Made by a program: the position numbers and the translations under genes
In this document: positions 1,008 through 13,462 of the stretch, piece after piece
Numbering within the stretch: position 1 is the first letter of the stretch
How the letters are laid out: every line of letters starts with the position of its first letter
Notes under the pieces: generated by a model
The model's database searches: none
Told to the model about the DNA's origin: nothing
The model's input: only the letters and a program-made list of their open reading frames with translations
DNA from: Candidatus Bathyarchaeota archaeon
GTDB taxonomy: Archaea > Thermoproteota > Bathyarchaeia > TCS64
Length of the DNA: 13,463 nt
Direction: 5' to 3'
Assembly: GCA_043826455.1 (NCBI GenBank)
Contig: JBDRQD010000074.1
Coordinates: forward strand, 1-13,463

Positions 1008-1529
1008 ATGGCTTCTACTGCAACTAACCCGAAGTGGAAGAAGAAGGTGAACATCGCCTACGAGGAGTATTTTAACCCGCCTTGGTTCATACCCCACAAA
1101 GGGATCGTGAAGATAGCAAAGGAGCTGGAGAAGGAGCTTGGAAAGGAAAAAGCTCACCAAATAATTAGCAGATGCGCCGACGAACTAGCAACATCAAACA
1201 TGAGTGCTCGTGAGGGGCCCCCTGAGGAAATCATGGAAGCGTGAAGGAAGCTCATCGAGCCGACCTCACCCATCTTCGCCCACGCCTTGGAAACGGAGTT
1301 CATCGACGACACGCCCCATACAGTGAAGATGCGGGTCAAGGAATGTCTCTGGGCCAAGAGCTTCAGAGAGATGGGGGCAGCGGACATAGGCTTCCTCTGG
1401 GAGTGCAAAACAGATTACGCCGCCGCTACGGCGTTCCACCCCAAGTTAAAGCTCTGGCGAGACAAGACCCTGATGCAGGGAGATGATTGTTGCGAGTTCT
1501 GCTGGACGTGGGAGGAAGACGACAAGTAA
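1008..1529 (+). pseudogene. L-2-amino-thiazoline-4-carboxylic acid (ATC) hydrolase-family protein interrupted by an in-frame TGA at 1242-1244
   Basis: ORFs 1008-1244 and 1287-1529 share one frame, separated only by TGA (EIMEA*RKLIEPTSPIFAHALETEF). Family motifs: ELGKEKAHQII, VKECLWAKSFREMGAADIG...CKTD and RDKTLMQGDDCCEF. Confidence 0.75.
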
Positions 1530-1554: not shown

Positions 1555-2153
1555 CTACGCGCGCCTTCCAGAGCTCGTAATGGTCGATGTGTTCATAGAC
1601 TTCAATGGGCTATCCTGTGCACGCACTTGTTCCCCAAGTTCATAGTACTTGAACTGAAACGCCGTCATAGGGCTCAACTTCGTAAGGTTGAGCCCCCCAT
1701 CCTCATTGAGGACACCCTCATGGGCTTGTACTGCCTTGATTTCACCGAAAAAGAACTCGTGACCACCCAAATCCACTGATTGTGCTATACTGCACTCGAT
1801 GTTTAAAGGGAACTCCCAGATACAGGGCGATGACACACTGTGAGCCATAGGCGTCAACCCACATTCCTTGAACTTTCGACCTTCCGCCCCGAATGCGAGC
1901 CACAATACTCGACGACCCCCACGTGTTTCTTGGACGGCACATTGATGACGAAGCTATCTCCCTCAGCCATGATCCCGTAACTATACCTTGAATGTCCTAT
2001 AGCGACACCCCACATCGGTGGATCGTGGCATGCACCGGAGACGGCGCTCACAGTAATAAGATTAGGTTTAGAGCCGTCAGGAAGCGAACATGAAACAACT
2101 ACAACGGGAAGAGGAAAATCCATCCTCAACGCAACAGGAAGATCAACCTTCAT
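1555..2153 (-). pseudogene. Flavin reductase-like (flavoredoxin/DIM6-NTAB family) protein with a 1-nt frameshift near 1875
   Basis: N-terminal half: FPLPVVVVSC...PNLITVS...PPMWGVAIGHSRYSY...FVINVP...YCGSHSGRKV. C-terminal half: KFKECGLTP...PCIWEFPLNIEC...LGGHEFFFGEI. One extra base restores the family motif SGRKV(D/E)KF. Likely start is ATG 2153 (MKVDLP). Confidence 0.8.
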
Positions 2154-2438
2154 GTAATCCATAAAAGTAATCATGTCAGCGCAAGGTAAGAAATTTTATT
2201 CACACACCATTTAACATCATTTTACGCACAAAAAAACGCCACCCATCAAAATTTGGTTTAGCTAAATGCAACCCGAAAAAACTCATATTCTTCCACACAG
2301 CTGTCAGACCCCAGTCGAACAAGAACACCCCAAGCGGCGAAGACCAGCCACCCCCACCACCGCCCAAAAAACCCCTAAAAAACCTCCGATCAACAAAAAA
2401 AAGCCTTAAAAAGGGGAATCGCGGTGGCGGTGATGGGA

Positions 2439-3021: not shown

Positions 3022-3297
3022 ATGAGAGGACGGGGCAAAATAAGACTCTGGCCAGCCTACTTCGACGCAGCCCTCAGCCGCGGACAGGGCAGAAGAGTAC
3101 CCAGAGATAAGGCCATACGCGACCCAACCCCAGAAACCATAGAGAAGGCCGCCCAGAGACTAGGACTCAACCCCACAGCGGAGCCAGGCGCCGCCTACAG
3201 CAAACAGCCCTGGCGCAAAACCGGCCTCGTCCAAGTAGACAAAAAAGGCAAGAAAGCCGACATCATATTGAAAATAGCCCAGGAGCTGAGAAAGTGA
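3022..3297 (+). CDS. srp19: Signal recognition particle protein SRP19/Sec65
   Basis: LWPAYFDAALSRGQGRRVP...P..ETIEKAAQRLGL...YSKQPW..TGLV. Conserved position after rps8e. Start is ATG 3022 or GTG 3013. Confidence 0.93.
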   Translation: MRGRGKIRLWPAYFDAALSRGQGRRVPRDKAIRDPTPETIEKAAQRLGLNPTAEPGAAYSKQPWRKTGLVQVDKKGKKADIILKIAQELRK

Positions 3298-3566
3298 CAG
3301 CCACCCAGAGAATAGGAGAAGTCCTCCACAGGAGCAAAACAGGCAAACTCATCGTACGACTCCAAGCCGAGGCCAGAATAGGTCAGCCCGTCCTCGACAA
3401 ACGGGGAAAAAGAGTCGGCCAAGTCTTCGACATCTTCGGCCCCGTCACAGCCCCCTACGCCTCCATCAGGATGAAGGACGATGAGACGGGCCAGCCCGAC
3501 GAGCTATACCTCGGCGATAGGGCTGAGAGAGGGCCTCGACCTAAGAAGAGAAGGCAGAAACGCTAG
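3294..3566 (+). CDS. gar1: H/ACA RNP protein Gar1/Naf1 family
   Basis: IGEVLH...LIVR...IGQPVLDKRGKRVGQVFDIFGPVTAPYASI. GTGA overlap with the srp19 stop; basic tail. Confidence 0.9.
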   Translation: MTATQRIGEVLHRSKTGKLIVRLQAEARIGQPVLDKRGKRVGQVFDIFGPVTAPYASIRMKDDETGQPDELYLGDRAERGPRPKKRRQKR

Positions 3567-4747
3567 GCCTCGGGGTTCAGGTAGTCCCGGACCGCCACGA
3601 CCTCTCCGCCTCGGAGGTAGACCCTGGGGACCCTACGGGAGACGTTACAGACTATCTCCTCATTGATGCTACCCGCCCACTCCGCGACCTCCTCGATGTG
3701 GGGCGAGTTATCTGAGCCGTCGCCGAAGAGCACCACCTCGTCGTCGTCCTTCAAGTCCTCTATGTCTGTGACGTCAACCATGCACTGATCCATGCATACG
3801 CGGCCCACCACAGGCGCCCTGACCCCATTGATGGCGACCTGGCCCTTGTTGGTCAGACTTCTCCTGTAGCCGTCAGCGTACCCTATGGGGAGGGTGGCTA
3901 TCCGGCTCTCCCTCTCGGTCTTGAAGACTAGGCCATAGCTTATCCCCGCGCCCTTTGGGACGGTTTTGATGAGGGCGGGCTTCGCCTTCAGGGTCATGCA
4001 TATCTTACTGTCAATCCTTGTGTGCTCAGCGTCTTTCCCTGGGTGCAGCCCGTACAGGGCTGATCCCGGTCTCACCATGTCTAGGCTGTACTCGGGGAAG
4101 TCGATCAAGGCGGCGCTGTTGGATATGTGTTTTACGGGTATCTCGACGCCCCTTGACTCAAGGCCCTCGACGGTGGCCATGAACCTGTTGAACTGGACCC
4201 GAGTGTACGTCTTGTCCGCCTCATATGCCGTAGCGAAGTGAGAGTAAATGCCCTCAACCATGATCCCAGGTAGTGAGACGATCTTTTCCACGGCCTCAAC
4301 GGCCTCAGGCGACGCCGGGAAGCCTAGCCTACCGAGACCCGTGTCGAGTTTCACGTGAATCTTGGCCTCTTCACCTATCTCCTGCGCGGTCTCACTGAGG
4401 CTGCGGGCCTGCTCGACTTGGTATATGGTGGGCGTGACGCCGTGTCTTAGCATCCTGGTGTAGAGGTGCTTCTGGATGTATCCGAGGACAAGAATCTGGG
4501 CCTTCACCCCGTTGTTTCTAAGCTCGACTGCTTCGTCCAGGTTTGCTACAGCGAGACTGGTTGCCCCGTTCTTCAGAAAAGTCTTGGCCGCCATCGGCGC
4601 GCCATGCCCGTAGGCATCCGCTTTCACAGCCGCCATTATGGCGGCTGATCTGGGTGTTATGCGTCGTACCTCTCTGCAGTTATGGCTTAGGCGGTCGAGG
4701 CTGATCTCCGCCCATACAGGCCTCACGTTGTAGCTCTCAAGTGACAT
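3563..4747 (-). CDS. alr: Alanine racemase-family PLP enzyme (bacterial fold-type III); substrate may not be alanine
   Basis: RPVWAEISL, AAVKADAYGHG (PLP lysine), HVKLDTGLGRLG, SNSAA, MVRPG, ISYG (catalytic Tyr), PIGYADGY, GRVCMDQ and SRRVPR. The real start is ATG 4747 (394 aa), because the ORF-track extension runs through the tRNA. Confidence 0.92.
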   Translation of the reverse strand: MSLESYNVRPVWAEISLDRLSHNCREVRRITPRSAAIMAAVKADAYGHGAPMAAKTFLKNGATSLAVANLDEAVELRNNGVKAQILVLGYIQKHLYTRMLRHGVTPTIYQVEQARSLSETAQEIGEEAKIHVKLDTGLGRLGFPASPEAVEAVEKIVSLPGIMVEGIYSHFATAYEADKTYTRVQFNRFMATVEGLESRGVEIPVKHISNSAALIDFPEYSLDMVRPGSALYGLHPGKDAEHTRIDSKICMTLKAKPALIKTVPKGAGISYGLVFKTERESRIATLPIGYADGYRRSLTNKGQVAINGVRAPVVGRVCMDQCMVDVTDIEDLKDDDEVVLFGDGSDNSPHIEEVAEWAGSINEEIVCNVSRRVPRVYLRGGEVVAVRDYLNPEA

Positions 4748-4790
4748 GGGGAAACGTGAAGCCTCTGGGAATAAATCATGTTTGGCTGTG

Positions 4791-4866
4791 TGGCGCGGCC
4801 GGCAGGATTCGAACCCGCGGCCCCGGGTTCCGAAGACCCGTGCTCTATCCACTGAGCTACGGCCGC
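4791..4866 (-). tRNA. tRNA-Arg (anticodon TCG), intronless, CCA encoded
   Basis: GCGGCCG TA GCTC AGTGGATA GAGC A CGGGT CT-TCG-GA ACCCG GGGCC GCGGG TTCGAAT CCTGC CGGCCGC G CCA forms a complete cloverleaf. Confidence 0.97.
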
Positions 4867-5416: not shown

Positions 5417-6087
5417 GGAGGTTCATGGACCTGCACCTTACGCCCAGACCAGGGCAAGGGGACGCGATGGTGTGGCGAGCCGGGGAGCTGGGCTACGCGG
5501 GGGTCGCCGTGGCGGGGGAAGCTGTGAAGGACGCAGGGAGGATCGAGGTCTACACAAGGATAGACCTGGAGCCGAGAAACCAGCAGCAGCTCACGGACCA
5601 ACTGAACAAGCATAGAAGAGGCTTCACCGTGGTCTCGGTAACCTGCACCACGAAGAGCGTCGCCAGGCAGGCGGCCAAGGACCACAGGGTGGACGTCATC
5701 AAGTATCCATCTGATCACAGGAGGAAGACTGTGTGGATGGACAGGCAGCAGGCCGCCCTGGCCGCGGAGTCGGGGTGCTGCTACGAGGTCGAGGCGGCTG
5801 AGCTCATGGCCCAGGAGCCGGGCGGGCTGGAGAAGACGCTGAAGACCCTCAGGAGGGAGCTGGAGAACGCCCTCAAACATGGTGTGCCCGTGGTCTTGTC
5901 AAGCGGAGCCTCCACCGTTCAAGGGCTGAGGGACCCCAGGAGCATGGCGTCCTTCATGCACCTGCTGGGCGTGGGCGAGGAGGATGCCCTGGACATGGTC
6001 TCCGATAACCCCTGGGCACTGGTGGAAAGAAACCGTGATAAGCTTTCAGGCCGCACTGTTCTACCAGGTGTAGCCAAGGTTGAGTGA
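5413..6087 (+). CDS. rnp3: Ribonuclease P protein component 3 (Rpp30)
   Basis: FMDLHL, AGELGY, VARQAAKDHRVDVI, AALAAESGCCYEV and VPVVLSSGASTVQGLRDPRSM motifs. ATGA overlap with the upstream gene. Confidence 0.9.
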   Translation: MRRFMDLHLTPRPGQGDAMVWRAGELGYAGVAVAGEAVKDAGRIEVYTRIDLEPRNQQQLTDQLNKHRRGFTVVSVTCTTKSVARQAAKDHRVDVIKYPSDHRRKTVWMDRQQAALAAESGCCYEVEAAELMAQEPGGLEKTLKTLRRELENALKHGVPVVLSSGASTVQGLRDPRSMASFMHLLGVGEEDALDMVSDNPWALVERNRDKLSGRTVLPGVAKVE

Positions 6088-6817
6088 CTACGCGACTGTA
6101 GACATCCTGGTCCACTGCTTCTACCATAGGGTGGGCCTCCACAGGGGCCACCCTATACTGAGCGTCAGCTGGCCCCTTTCCCCCATGCCCCTACAGGAGA
6201 TAAACGAGGTGTACCACGGCATGGTGTTCAGCCTAGGGAGCACCAACACGGTGCTCATCAGGGACGGGGACACCACCATAGTCCACGACCCGGGTATACT
6301 TCAGCTGGGCCGCTATGGGACGTTGAAGATGAGGATGGCTGAGCTGGGGCTGGCCCCCGAGGACGTGGACCTTGTGATCAACAGCCACTGCCACTACGAC
6401 CACACGGAGGCAAATTACCTGTTCAAGGGCAAACCGCTGCTGGTTCACGAGGAGGAGGTCAAGTACAGCGACCAGCTGTATTGGCCAGAGTTCACTGCAG
6501 CCTTCATGGGGATCATGGACGTGCAGAAGTTCAGGGGCAGCAGGAAGGTCTCGGACCACGTCAGGATCATCGAGACGGTGGGCCACACGCCGGGCAGCAT
6601 CACGACACTGGTGGACACGGAGGAGGGCCTGGTGGCGCTGGTGGGGGACGCGGTCATCGTCAAGGAGGATCTGCTGGAGCTGAGGCCCCCCAGCGTGGTC
6701 ACCAAGAACATAGCTGCGGAGGTAGCCGTGGACAGCCTGAAGAAGATCAGGGCCCTGAACCCGGTGACGGTCATCCCGGGGCATGACGCCCCCTTCTCTC
6801 CGCAAGGTTTAAAATAG
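6080..6817 (+). CDS. Metallo-beta-lactamase-fold hydrolase (MBLAC1/AHL-lactonase-like)
   Basis: HDPG, SHCHYDH (HxHxDH), GHTPGS, VGDA and IPGHD metal-binding motifs. The TTG start overlaps the rpp30 stop by 8 nt. Confidence 0.88.
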   Translation: MSDYATVDILVHCFYHRVGLHRGHPILSVSWPLSPMPLQEINEVYHGMVFSLGSTNTVLIRDGDTTIVHDPGILQLGRYGTLKMRMAELGLAPEDVDLVINSHCHYDHTEANYLFKGKPLLVHEEEVKYSDQLYWPEFTAAFMGIMDVQKFRGSRKVSDHVRIIETVGHTPGSITTLVDTEEGLVALVGDAVIVKEDLLELRPPSVVTKNIAAEVAVDSLKKIRALNPVTVIPGHDAPFSPQGLK

Positions 6818-7435: not shown

Positions 7436-8188
7436 TTAGAGGTGTGCGTTCAGCCACTCTATCACCGTTTTTATCAGAGGCCCCCTATGCTCCGTGAAGT
7501 TATGATCAGCGTCCTTGATGATCGCCCATTTTTTTGGCTTGTTGGCTGCCTCGTATAGGAGCCTGCAACTCTTCGGAACCGTCAACGTGTCCTCTGAGCC
7601 GACGACCACCAGCAGAGGAGCCGTCACGTCTCGTACGCTATCAACTGGGTTCAGCTCCACAGCCGCCTTCTTGAAGTCTCCTCTGAGCCTTTCCTCGTTC
7701 CATCCCATGAGCTTACCCTCAGCTATCTTGAGGAAGTATGGAAGCATTGCGTCCAGGGCTGGCCCTGTGGTCCAGGCCTTCAAGTCAGAGACGGGCGCCA
7801 TCAAGACACCCGTCTTCACCGACCGGTCATGGCTCATGATCTTGGTGAGGGGGAGGGCGCCCATGCTGTGGGAGACCAGCCCAACTCGGCTAGCGTCCAC
7901 ATACGGCAGCCCACGGAGGAGCTTCAAGGCGTCCCCGGTGCTGGGCGCGAGTGCCGTGAAGCTGTACTCTCCCTCACTGCCCCACGCGCCCCTGTAGTAG
8001 AAGATGAGGACAACTATCCCGTTGAGAGCCAGCTCCTCAGCCAGGTCCATGTTTTTGTTGTCCCCCGGGTACCCGTGACACAGAGCCACAGCGGGAAACC
8101 TACCCTCTTCGAGCGGTCGGTACAACCTACCCCTAAGCCGGTAGCCCCCGCTGACGAAAAAAACATCCTCGACAACAATTCCAGCCAT
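7436..8188 (-). CDS. Alpha/beta-fold serine hydrolase (S9/Abhydrolase-like)
   Basis: LRGRLYRP, LCHGYPG, FYYRGAWGSEG, nucleophile elbow VSHSMG, catalytic Asp in GSEDTL and His in ADHNF. Confidence 0.9.
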   Translation of the reverse strand: MAGIVVEDVFFVSGGYRLRGRLYRPLEEGRFPAVALCHGYPGDNKNMDLAEELALNGIVVLIFYYRGAWGSEGEYSFTALAPSTGDALKLLRGLPYVDASRVGLVSHSMGALPLTKIMSHDRSVKTGVLMAPVSDLKAWTTGPALDAMLPYFLKIAEGKLMGWNEERLRGDFKKAAVELNPVDSVRDVTAPLLVVVGSEDTLTVPKSCRLLYEAANKPKKWAIIKDADHNFTEHRGPLIKTVIEWLNAHL

Positions 8189-11320: not shown

Positions 11321-12985
11321 ATGCCGGTTATAGACGTCAACCTGGAAGACTTCAGACAACTCCTGGGAAGAAAAGTAACCATAAAGGAGCTACAGGACAG
11401 GCTGCCCATGATGGGCACAAGCTGGGAAGGGCCCACCGAGGAAGGCTTCGCCCTGGAGGTGTTCCCCAACAGGCCCGACCTCCTCAGCATAGAGGGACTC
11501 GTCAGAGCGTACGCCTCCTGGACAGGGGAGAAGCCGGGGCTGAGAAAGTACCCCGTCAAGAAGTCCGGCTATAAGGTCGTAGTGGACGAGAAGACCCAGA
11601 GCGTGAGGCCCTGGTTCGTCACCGCCGTCATAAAGAAGGTGAACTTTGACGACGCCCTCATCCGCAGCTTCATCCAGATGCAGGAGAAGCTCCACATGAC
11701 CCACGGCCGCAAGCGCCGCAAGGTAGCCATCGGCCTCCACAACCTGGAGCCCGTGGAGTTCCCCGTCACCTACACCACCAAGCCCCCCGGCTTCAAGTTC
11801 AGGCCCCTGGGGGAGCGGTTCAAGAAGGACCTCACATGGATTCTGACGGAGATGAAGACGGGCAAGGAGTACGCGTGGACGGTGGAGGGCTACGACGAGT
11901 ACCCCATGATCCTCGACAAGAAGGGCATGGTGCTCAGCATGCCCCCCATCATCAACGGCGAGTACACCAGGGTGGACGAGGCCACCGCCGAGCTCTTCAT
12001 AGACGTCACGGGCACCGACCTGAAGGCCATCACCGAGGTGCTGAACGTCATCTGCGTCACCCTGGCCGACAGGGGCGCCGAGGTCTACGAGGTCCACAAC
12101 CACTACCCGGACGGCTCAGTGATGACAACACCCAACCTGAAGCCCTGGACCATGAAGCTAGACAACGGCTACGTCAACAGGACCCTGGGCGTCGAGTTCA
12201 CCCCCGGGGAGACTGCCTCGGAGCTGGAGAAGATGGGCCACGCAGCCAAGGTCAAAGGCAGCAAGATACAGGTCAGCATCCCCTGCTACAGGGCAGACAT
12301 AATGCACCCCATAGACCTGGTGGAGGACGTGGCCATAGCCCACGACTATGACGCCTTCGAGCCCGTGATACCGCCCATTCACACCGCGGCCGGGGAGGAC
12401 CCCCTGGAGGTCTTCAGCAGGCAGCTCCGTAACTTCATGGTGGGCTTTGGCCTCCTGGAGGTGGTCACCTTCATGATGAGCAACAGGGACAAGCTGTTCA
12501 CAAGGATGATGCTGCCCGAGGAGCCTATCTGTGAAACCGAGAACCCCAAGATGGAGACCTACGACAGCCTCAGGAACAGGCTGCTGCCCAGCCTCATGGA
12601 GGTCCTCAGCCTCAACAAGCACCACGGGTACCCCCAGAACCTCTACGAGGTGGACGACGTGGTGATCATAGACCCCACCACGGAGACCGGGGCCAGGACG
12701 AGGAGACGCCTGGGCGTCGTACTCTGCCACGCCCGCGCCAACTTCAGCGAGATCAAGGGGATGATGAACAGCGTCCTGGAGAACCTGGAGGTGGAGGCAG
12801 AGGTGGAGGAGGGGGGCTGGGACTGCTTCATCGAGGGCAGGAGGTACACGGCATCGGTGGGCGGAGAGCCCCTGTGCTGGGCCGGGGAGGTGCGGCCCGA
12901 GTCCTTGGAGAGGTGGGGCCTGGAGATGCCTGTGGCGGCCCTGGAGATGGACCTAGACCTTCTCTTCAGCCTCGTCCAGGACTGA
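11321..12985 (+). CDS. pheT: Phenylalanine-tRNA ligase beta subunit
   Basis: PNRPDLLSIEG, QEKLHMTHGRKRRKVAIGLH, LSMPPIING, YRADIMHPIDLVEDVAIA and LRNRLLPSL. Follows pheS by 5 nt. Confidence 0.97.
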   Translation: MPVIDVNLEDFRQLLGRKVTIKELQDRLPMMGTSWEGPTEEGFALEVFPNRPDLLSIEGLVRAYASWTGEKPGLRKYPVKKSGYKVVVDEKTQSVRPWFVTAVIKKVNFDDALIRSFIQMQEKLHMTHGRKRRKVAIGLHNLEPVEFPVTYTTKPPGFKFRPLGERFKKDLTWILTEMKTGKEYAWTVEGYDEYPMILDKKGMVLSMPPIINGEYTRVDEATAELFIDVTGTDLKAITEVLNVICVTLADRGAEVYEVHNHYPDGSVMTTPNLKPWTMKLDNGYVNRTLGVEFTPGETASELEKMGHAAKVKGSKIQVSIPCYRADIMHPIDLVEDVAIAHDYDAFEPVIPPIHTAAGEDPLEVFSRQLRNFMVGFGLLEVVTFMMSNRDKLFTRMMLPEEPICETENPKMETYDSLRNRLLPSLMEVLSLNKHHGYPQNLYEVDDVVIIDPTTETGARTRRRLGVVLCHARANFSEIKGMMNSVLENLEVEAEVEEGGWDCFIEGRRYTASVGGEPLCWAGEVRPESLERWGLEMPVAALEMDLDLLFSLVQD

Positions 12986-13462
12986 TTCATCAACCTTCTT
13001 CAACACGCCTGTGATGAAATCGGTCTTGGCGTCGGTGTATCCTTCGCGGTCCTCTCCGTAGTGGTGGGCTAGCCGTTTCTTCAGCTCGTGGTACTCCTTG
13101 GTTGTGTCCGGGTGAGCCCTAAGATAGTCTCTGAAGGCGAGCTGCCGCCTCCAGTGGCGGCTGCCCTCCACCACCAGGTGGACGTGGTGGTAGAGCTCAC
13201 GGGTGCCATAGCCGAGGCAGTAGAACCACTCCGGGTCGCCGGGCTGAGGGGTGACGTCCATGTACCCATTCTTCTCCAGGGCTTTCTGCACCCGGTCCGC
13301 CTCAGCCTTGTCCCGGACCCCAACCATGATGTCTACGATGGGTTTGGCTCCGAGGCCGGGCACAGCGGTGCTGCCCACGTGCACCACAGTCATGCCGGGC
13401 GCCCCCAGGGCCTCCGTGATCCTGCGTCTCTCCGCCTCGAAGCGCCTCGGCCACTCCGGGTC
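12953..13462 (-). CDS. GrpB/UPF0157 family nucleotidyltransferase-fold protein, 5'-partial
   Basis: The frame stays open to the window edge: DPEWPRRFEAERRRITEALG...HVGSTAVPGLGAKPIVDIMVGV...HHVHLV...LAFRDYLRAHP...Y..LK...YTDAKTDFI. Confidence 0.92.
   Translation of the reverse strand, partial: DPEWPRRFEAERRRITEALGAPGMTVVHVGSTAVPGLGAKPIVDIMVGVRDKAEADRVQKALEKNGYMDVTPQPGDPEWFYCLGYGTRELYHHVHLVVEGSRHWRRQLAFRDYLRAHPDTTKEYHELKKRLAHHYGEDREGYTDAKTDFITGVLKKVDESVLDEAEEKV

Follow-up and report, generated by a model that had tools for sequence, protein, structure and literature searches.

An alanine racemase family gene with four altered pocket residues at the gar1 locus of a Bathyarchaeia lineage

RESULTS

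An intact racemase gene among archaeal housekeeping genes

The window analyzed here is the whole 13,463-nt stretch of contig JBDRQD010000074.1 from a Candidatus Bathyarchaeota archaeon of the TCS64 lineage (assembly GCA_043826455.1). A gene for a 394-aa racemase of the Alr family (fold-type III PLP enzymes), labeled P0001 in the alignments, was found on the reverse strand at 3563..4747, where it starts with an ATG at 4747, contains no internal stop codon and ends with the stop at 3563-3565. It converges on gar1, which encodes an H/ACA RNP protein recognized by profile match (3294..3566, forward strand) and served as the marker of the orthologous locus; the stop codons of the two genes overlap by 4 nt (CTAG) at 3563-3566. 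Upstream lies a conserved neighbor, a tRNA-Arg(TCG) gene (4791..4866, reverse strand), identified by tRNA call and synteny. The neighbors (rpS8e, SRP19, gar1, Rpp30, NreA, PheS and PheT) are archaeal housekeeping genes and offer no clue to the substrate.

Elsewhere in the window, genes for an MBL-fold hydrolase (6080-6817, forward strand; 73-85% identical in relatives) and an alpha/beta hydrolase (7436-8188, reverse strand) were syntenic in several relatives; 12953-13393 (reverse strand) encodes a GrpB-domain protein. A frameshift, either real or due to assembly, divided a flavin-reductase-like gene at 1555-2174 (reverse strand) between two frames that overlap and match PF01613 positions 3-83 and 78-142. 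The region 1008-1529 (forward strand) probably holds a split gene, in which 1287-1529 matched the C-terminal half of PF14196 and the ORF at 1008-1244 matched no Pfam family. At about 2200-2580, upstream of rpS8e, the sequence is rich in A and C and low in complexity, with long runs of C, and looks like poor assembly.

The initial annotation had described the racemase ORF as an Alr homologue with its catalytic lysine and tyrosine intact, and this description held. The protein matched both PF01168 and PF00842, corresponding to the TIM-barrel N-domain and the beta C-domain, and scored 373 bits against the alr equivalog model TIGR00492 (cut-off 168). The alignment-based AlphaFold2 model of the monomer (pLDDT 90.3) was used in place of a single-sequence prediction, which was set aside at pLDDT 35.6, and it superimposed on solved Alr structures with TM scores of 0.88-0.94. 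The highest of these, 0.94, was to PDB 4y2w, also the best PDB sequence match (E 2.7e-99). Residues were placed in Geobacillus stearothermophilus (Gst) numbering through a bridge, the Anoxybacillus plasmid Alr, which aligns without gaps to PDB 1bd0/1sft at an offset of 1 and was then aligned to P0001. By alignment and codon check, the PLP-binding catalytic base Lys42 (Gst Lys39; 4622..4624, reverse strand) and the second catalytic base Tyr271 (Gst Tyr265; 3935..3937, reverse strand) were intact. Also kept were Y43, K129, R136, H166, S204, R219, G221, Y284, R290, C311, M312 and D313 in Gst numbering, with K129 present as Lys133 and Arg140-Leu141 retained. Since both catalytic bases and the residues that bind PLP and the substrate carboxylate are intact, two-base racemization of a free alpha-amino acid should be available to the enzyme.

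A purine-rich element followed by TTTATT, placed 28-23 nt 5' of the ATG, was picked out by eye on the reverse strand at 4770..4785 as a putative archaeal promoter; we take the two elements to be a BRE and a TATA box. The element was identical in L180, a 92% identical relative, and of the upstream regions of 14 further orthologues most had a T-rich box about as far from the gene. This suggests that the racemase may have its own leaderless transcript, and it backs the start at 4747.

The gene is old at this locus and probably dispensable

Of 20 regions taken from genomes of the same genus, 17 showed the racemase and gar1 tail to tail. The contig of an 18th region (L131) ends inside the gene, which is syntenic by its tRNA side, and the remaining two regions hold non-syntenic copies of a second clade. 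In a second genus the racemase adjoins gar1 in 10 genomes. This adjacency in two genera indicates that the racemase is old and vertically inherited. A recent insertion beside the tRNA-Arg gene was ruled out by the gar1 synteny in 18 of the 20 regions of relatives and in the second genus.

Four of the 18 syntenic same-genus copies were interrupted, by a stop plus a frameshift in G026 (L137), a frameshift in G003 (L139), an insertion of about 2 kb replacing the middle of the gene in G017 (L140), and an early stop opposite residue 12 in G016 (L133). A further copy, L045, carried a frameshift. The gene is probably dispensable because of these interruptions, some of which may be assembly errors.

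Four residues of the substrate pocket are changed

In the alignment, K42, L138, H170, Y175, R226, S229, Y271 and E363 of the query corresponded to Gst K39, M134, H166, D171, R219, I222, Y265 and Y354, respectively. Four of these are replacements, all encoded on the reverse strand: Leu138 for Met134 (CTC, 4334..4336) and Tyr175 for Asp171 of the middle entryway layer (TAT, 4223..4225), both changed on this branch; Ser229 for Ile222, beside the PLP phosphate (TCA, 4061..4063), which is Ala in the homologue P0122 and in strain variants; and Glu363 for Tyr354 of the inner layer (GAG, 3659..3661), which is His, Asp or Asn in orthologues. The assignment of the Asp171 and Tyr354 equivalents to the middle and inner layers follows published structures (PMC2743695, PMC3485190). 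In the 4y2w alignment, Y175 stood opposite Ser173 and E363 opposite Gln360. The initial annotation had read TAT at residue 175 and GAG at residue 363 and had equated these residues with Asp171 and Tyr354 of Geobacillus Alr; the codons were confirmed and the bridged alignment bore out the equivalences. It had also recorded RPGI as RPGS, a change that is present, but had overlooked that Ile222 is a second known specificity determinant.

Measured against the outgroup, change was concentrated in the pocket. Six of the eight entryway residues (inner layer Y265', Y354, Y284' and A170; middle layer R309', I352, R290' and D171) were kept, the exceptions being Y354 to Glu and D171 to Tyr. When the query was compared with 212 outgroup sequences, it differed only at M134 and D171 among the 50 sites conserved in at least 90% of them, only at M134, D171 and Y354 among the 68 sites conserved in at least 85%, and at seven, I222 among them, of the 88 sites conserved in at least 80%. 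With the eight entryway residues plus I222 taken from the literature as the prior pocket set, which did not include M134, the hypergeometric P was 0.013-0.015, a value that counts Y354, whose loss predates the branch. Met134 itself was found in 96% of the outgroup sequences and in all 27 syntenic orthologues. Against its own orthologues, the branch differed at 18 of 162 conserved sites, mostly outside the pocket. When all 394 sites were ranked by their excess of parsimony changes over the outgroup across a 75-row archaeal clade, sites 134, 354, 171 and 222 came 1st, 3rd, 7th and 12th, and other combinations at 134/171/222/354 in the sister clade and archaeal clade included LTGS, LGGD, MDSA, LATC, LDCE, MDTD and LDCD.

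The changed residues are real and are kept under purifying selection

Among 465 other distinct homologues, Tyr171 occurred in six and Glu354 in three, and the three with both all fell within the query branch. The full set of Leu, Tyr, Ser (or Ala) and Glu was found only in P0123, which is identical to P0001 over 394 aa, in P0122 (93% identity, Candidatus Bathyarchaeota) and in P0002 (88%). The relative L180, which covers residues 1-314 only, carried Leu, Tyr and Ser at 134, 171 and 222. The search for homologues with the Tyr/Glu pair that the initial annotation had proposed thus found it, and not Asp/Tyr, in close relatives at 88-93% identity, which speaks against a sequencing artefact. Over 3612-3824, a segment that takes in the Glu363 codon, no difference separated the window from a depth-2 contig produced by another study (run X2). 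The gene was also covered by contigs of X3, X7 and X8, which represent diverged strains, with a change at 4063 that gives Ser229Ala; among the differences listed, none fell in the Tyr175 or Glu363 codon, and 25 of the 37 within the gene were at third codon positions. One low-depth X7 contig skipped 565 nt (side 30 nt), which was taken as noise. The dN/dS ratio against L180 was 0.138 (Nei-Gojobori; dN 0.045, dS 0.327; 314 codons), indicating purifying selection. Because relatives at 88-93% identity share the pocket set and dN/dS is 0.14, the sequence comparisons indicate that the racemase is neither a sequencing error nor a decaying gene.

Tyr354 was lost before Asp171 changed

A tree of 80 rows was built with IQ-TREE in quick mode (LG+G4) with SH-aLRT support only; four intended bacterial rows were missing. 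A single clade of 54 rows (support 99) lay inside the Alrs of Tissierellia and Clostridia; its identified members are Bathyarchaeia of the host's family, and many rows are metagenome proteins. The nearest outgroups of P0001 were clostridial Alrs. From this nesting we infer that the racemase was transferred from Bacillota, from a Clostridia- or Tissierellia-like donor.

The query branch (support 100) had a stem of 0.40 substitutions per site and was nested within rows carrying His354 (96, 96). In gar1-linked orthologues from 27 distinct genomes, site 354 was His in 24, Asp in two and Asn in one, and never Tyr; site 171 was Asp in 25, Glu in one and a gap in one; and Met134 and Ile222 were each present in all 27. 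Because no orthologue has Tyr354 and the branch nests among His354 rows, Tyr354 was lost long before Asp171 changed. Site 354 went from Tyr through His to Glu, and Asp171Tyr followed later as a change of its own.

These findings do not support the reciprocal exchange of an acid and an aromatic residue that had been read from the two sites, since none of the 27 orthologues carries Tyr354 and sites 171 and 354 are uncoupled on the tree. Among 52 rows of the archaeal clade, an acid at 354 occurred without Tyr171 in 11 (for 171/354, eight Asp/Asp, one Asp/Glu and two Gly/Asp) versus three with Tyr/Glu, so that an acid arose at 354 repeatedly with Asp171 kept, including Glu354 in G097 (L288). The more distant P0216 and P0254 had Tyr171 alongside a retained Tyr354. 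Of seven independent pairs differing in the acid at 354, an average of 4.8 showed no change of residue class at 171 (median p of 1 in a sign test), and coupling of the two sites was rejected. Covariation of sites 222 and 354 showed a trend in the expected direction that was not significant, with four independent pairs only (median p 0.25). A four-site rebuild of the pocket is a better description of the query branch than a swap.

Four Alr-family genes in a host that lacks a peptidoglycan pathway

Profile searches were run on the proteins and contigs of the host genome, which is 97.66% complete. MurA scored 93 against a cut-off of 393, the sole match to Mur ligases was FolC, and one Ddl-like ATP-grasp gene remained below its cut-off (NF002378, 188 bits versus 243; L270:5951-6964, G000:C57). 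The host thus has no recognizable peptidoglycan pathway, in line with what had been supposed, and since neither MurA nor a Mur ligase pathway is present, wall synthesis is not the purpose of the racemase. The Ddl-like gene is flanked by two genes that matched no family, and it is divergent from a threonine-synthase-like gene.

The genome contained four Alr-family genes, four DppA/M55 (D-aminopeptidase) loci, one of them split, and five PF01177 loci, two of which exceeded the cut-off of the amino-acid racemase model TIGR00035 (Asp-racemase family). The four DppA/M55 loci and the two Asp-racemase-family genes make plausible the role in scavenging D-amino acids that had been suggested for the racemase. 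In a sample of 300 other genomes of the class, in which kin are not independent, Alr matches were found in 62 of 63 genomes of the host family, in 5 of the 6 remaining genomes from its order and in 2 of the 231 from elsewhere in the class; the corresponding counts for DppA were 61 of 63, 5 of 6 and 38 of 231. This pattern fits D-amino-acid salvage, as in the use of Alr by Methanococcus maripaludis. Some Bathyarchaeia metabolize D-amino acids in sediments, according to a review (PMC12694404) that, in the text available, does not name the enzymes, and TCS64 (Wuzhiqibiales) is described as a peptide-degrading order (PMC12694404, PMC10321748).

The other three Alr-family genes of the host are deep paralogues with 31-33% identity to the query (L002-L004; L267-L269; G000:C47:28684-29868, C25:19464-20669 and C30:5564-6757). 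They kept Lys39 and Tyr265, but His166 was replaced by Thr and C311-M312-D313-Q314 by S-x-N-H. They also passed the TIGR00492 threshold; because paralogues without H166, M312 and D313 pass, this match says little about the substrate. Their subfamily occurs across the order, has a best PDB match of only E 1.7e-49, and may be an undescribed enzyme subfamily, possibly of more interest than the query. The paralogue L267 (G000:C47:21000-37000) lies amid three amidohydrolase-family genes, two of about 600 aa with Amidohydro_3, a neighborhood that may hint at a D-aminoacylase-like role. Non-syntenic copies belonging to the same archaeal Alr clade as the query were found in G011 (L018), G031 (L135), G097 (L288), G162 (L295) and G222 (L279), with the pocket sets LDCD, LDCE, LTGS and MDIH; G031 has its copy besides the gar1-linked one.

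DISCUSSION

The site of Tyr354 governs specificity in characterized racemases, as the initial annotation had stated and as three studies bear out (PMC4517790, PMC4542195, PMC3485190). Tyr354 gates side-chain size, and Y354N raises serine activity 62-fold (PMC4542195). Changes at Ile222 and Tyr354 also accompany a change of substrate: the lysine racemase of Oenococcus oeni (OoLysR), whose substrates include Lys, Arg and Orn, departs from Alr at the equivalents of both, and I222T and/or Y354W in Geobacillus Alr gives weak lysine activity (review PMC6955911). No characterized racemase with Glu354 was found in the parts of the literature available to us.

The top match, AlrTt of Thermoanaerobacter tengcongensis (MBAlr1, PDB 4y2w), is naturally changed at the same two entryway sites (Ser173 and Gln360). 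It differs from the query in keeping Ile222 (RPGI), in having Gln rather than Glu at 354, and in belonging to a bacterium with a cell wall; its residue 360 packs on Ile227, the equivalent of I222 (PMC4517790). DadXTt of the same organism carries His at 354, like most syntenic orthologues of the query, and is described as having a much broader specificity (PMC4517790). OoLysR resembles the query in being annotated as Alr, and its own switch from alanine maps to the I222 and Y354 equivalents (Thr224 and Trp355; PMC6955911), two of the sites changed in the query. The Ser or Ala at 222 in the query branch fits Thr224, whereas Glu at 354 differs from Trp355. The tree, in which the nearest outgroups of P0001 were clostridial Alrs, gave no sign of close kinship between the two.

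In the broad-spectrum and lysine-preferring racemases Lyr, Bar and BsrV, Tyr354 is likewise replaced, by a smaller residue that enlarges the pocket (PMC3485190, PMC4542195), which in the lysine/arginine racemases Lyr and Bar is Thr or Ala (PMC3485190). In these enzymes an Arg-Asn pair stands where Alr has its carbamylated lysine (PMC3485190), whereas the query keeps Lys133 (K129) and Leu141, and it scored 209 against the cut-off of 434 for the Bsr-type model NF009879. The VanT serine racemase domain shares a non-Tyr residue at 354, Asn where the query has Glu. The query fell below the cut-offs of both VanT models (NF033131, 355 versus 460; NF033132, 229 versus 900), the 394-aa protein has no membrane domain, and the scan of the window proteins turned up no van genes. 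The ornithine racemase model Orr (NF040742) gave 20 bits against a cut-off of 480. A parallel by description is the Alr of M. maripaludis, also archaeal and of bacterial origin, with which the organism consumes D-Ala (PMC12363236, PMC4902934); that organism is of another lineage, and in the query's lineage the Alr family is multi-copy with variable pockets.

Taken together, we favor, with a probability of roughly 0.55, a catabolic racemase that now prefers larger polar or basic amino acids over alanine. In outline, a two-base (Lys42/Tyr271') PLP racemase would have been taken from Clostridia- or Tissierellia-like bacteria and then passed on vertically beside gar1 within a single Bathyarchaeia family. 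Early loss of Tyr354 in the archaeal clade, mostly to His, may have widened its specificity, as such loss does in characterized enzymes. On the query branch, Ile222Ser/Ala would open space beside the PLP phosphate and His354Glu would add an acid near it, so that Ser229 and Glu363 together could form a larger, anionic pocket suited to a cationic side chain, with Asp171Tyr and Met134Leu reshaping the corridor and Tyr175 perhaps supplying an aromatic wall. Preferred substrates would be larger polar and probably basic amino acids (Lys, Orn, Arg or diaminobutyrate), and the probable role would be to convert D-amino acids from bacterial debris to usable L-forms. That the substrate is specifically basic is an electrostatic argument that we advance tentatively. 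No match to D-lysine aminomutase (PF09043; D-lysine/ornithine) was found in the genome, in a search made without a positive control. Racemase activity, the class of substrate and the physiological direction are all predicted from sequence.

A less probable alternative is that the enzyme is still mainly an alanine (or alanine/serine) racemase, less efficient, in which the pocket changes are tolerated or compensating; Tyr175 could, for instance, restore the aromatic gate lost at 354, making the pair of changes function-conserving. AlrTt, changed at both sites, is still mainly an alanine racemase with serine at 28% (PMC4517790), VanT with its Asn still prefers alanine about fourfold (PMC4542195), and M. 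maripaludis uses its Alr for D-Ala. The query passes the alr equivalog cut-off, and the genome has two genes of the AlaDH/ornithine-cyclodeaminase family, both below the AlaDH cut-off. On the other hand, Asp or Glu at the 354-equivalent of AlrTt lowered alanine activity, where His raised it 2.2-fold (PMC4517790), relatives carry an acid at 354 without Tyr171, and the equivalog cut-off is also passed by the three deep paralogues.

It is unlikely that the protein is a PLP enzyme for a non-standard substrate or reaction, such as a racemase or epimerase of modified amino acids or peptide fragments, or an enzyme with an aldolase or lyase side activity. The four joint pocket changes, the long stem of 0.40 substitutions per site and the many pocket combinations in the sister clade (LTGS, LGGD, MDSA, LATC and LDCE) would suit such an enzyme, but neither the two catalytic bases nor the carboxylate-binding R136, Y284, M312 and D313 have changed, which is consistent with 1,1-proton transfer on a free alpha-amino acid. 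We find it very improbable that the gene is dispensable and under relaxed selection, with pocket changes that damage a weak or dead enzyme: the interrupted copies (four of 18, and L045) and the three further paralogues in the genome would allow it, but dN/dS within the branch is 0.14, sequences that diverge by 7-12% retain the pocket set, and conserved non-pocket sites are nearly untouched. A sequencing or assembly artefact has a negligible probability and is already refuted, because, despite the error signs elsewhere on the contig (1008-1529, 1555-2174 and about 2200-2580), the same residues recur in P0002, P0122 and L180 and the contig from another study matches over the Glu363 codon.

Taken by itself, the gene is a modest finding, archaeal Alrs and Tyr354 variants being known already. 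In the text available of four publications (PMC7141681, PMC6752024, PMC12694404, PMC10321748) no description of Alr genes in Bathyarchaeia was found, and Yu 2024 may cover them. The query matters mainly for the order-wide racemase radiation to which it belongs. The Alr expansion hardly extends beyond one order (67 of its 69 genomes versus 2 of 231 elsewhere in the class) and provides concrete, expressible candidates for D-amino-acid metabolism. Across its orthologues, site 354 is His, Asp, Asn or Glu and site 222 is Ile, Thr, Ser, Gly or Cys, so that the series amounts to a panel of natural mutants for substrate change in Alr-fold racemases. It is possible, as a tentative view of the whole, that one Bathyarchaeia order has made a bacterial Alr into a radiating toolkit of racemases, each specialized by substrate, for the D-amino acids of bacterial necromass, with the query branch as its basic-amino-acid member by way of an acid at the Tyr354 site. 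If so, the toolkit would comprise enzymes with hypervariable pocket sites 134, 171, 222 and 354 plus the deep paralogous subfamily without His166, Met312 and Asp313, and the acid at the Tyr354 site would be a solution not found among the characterized racemases in the available parts of the literature consulted.
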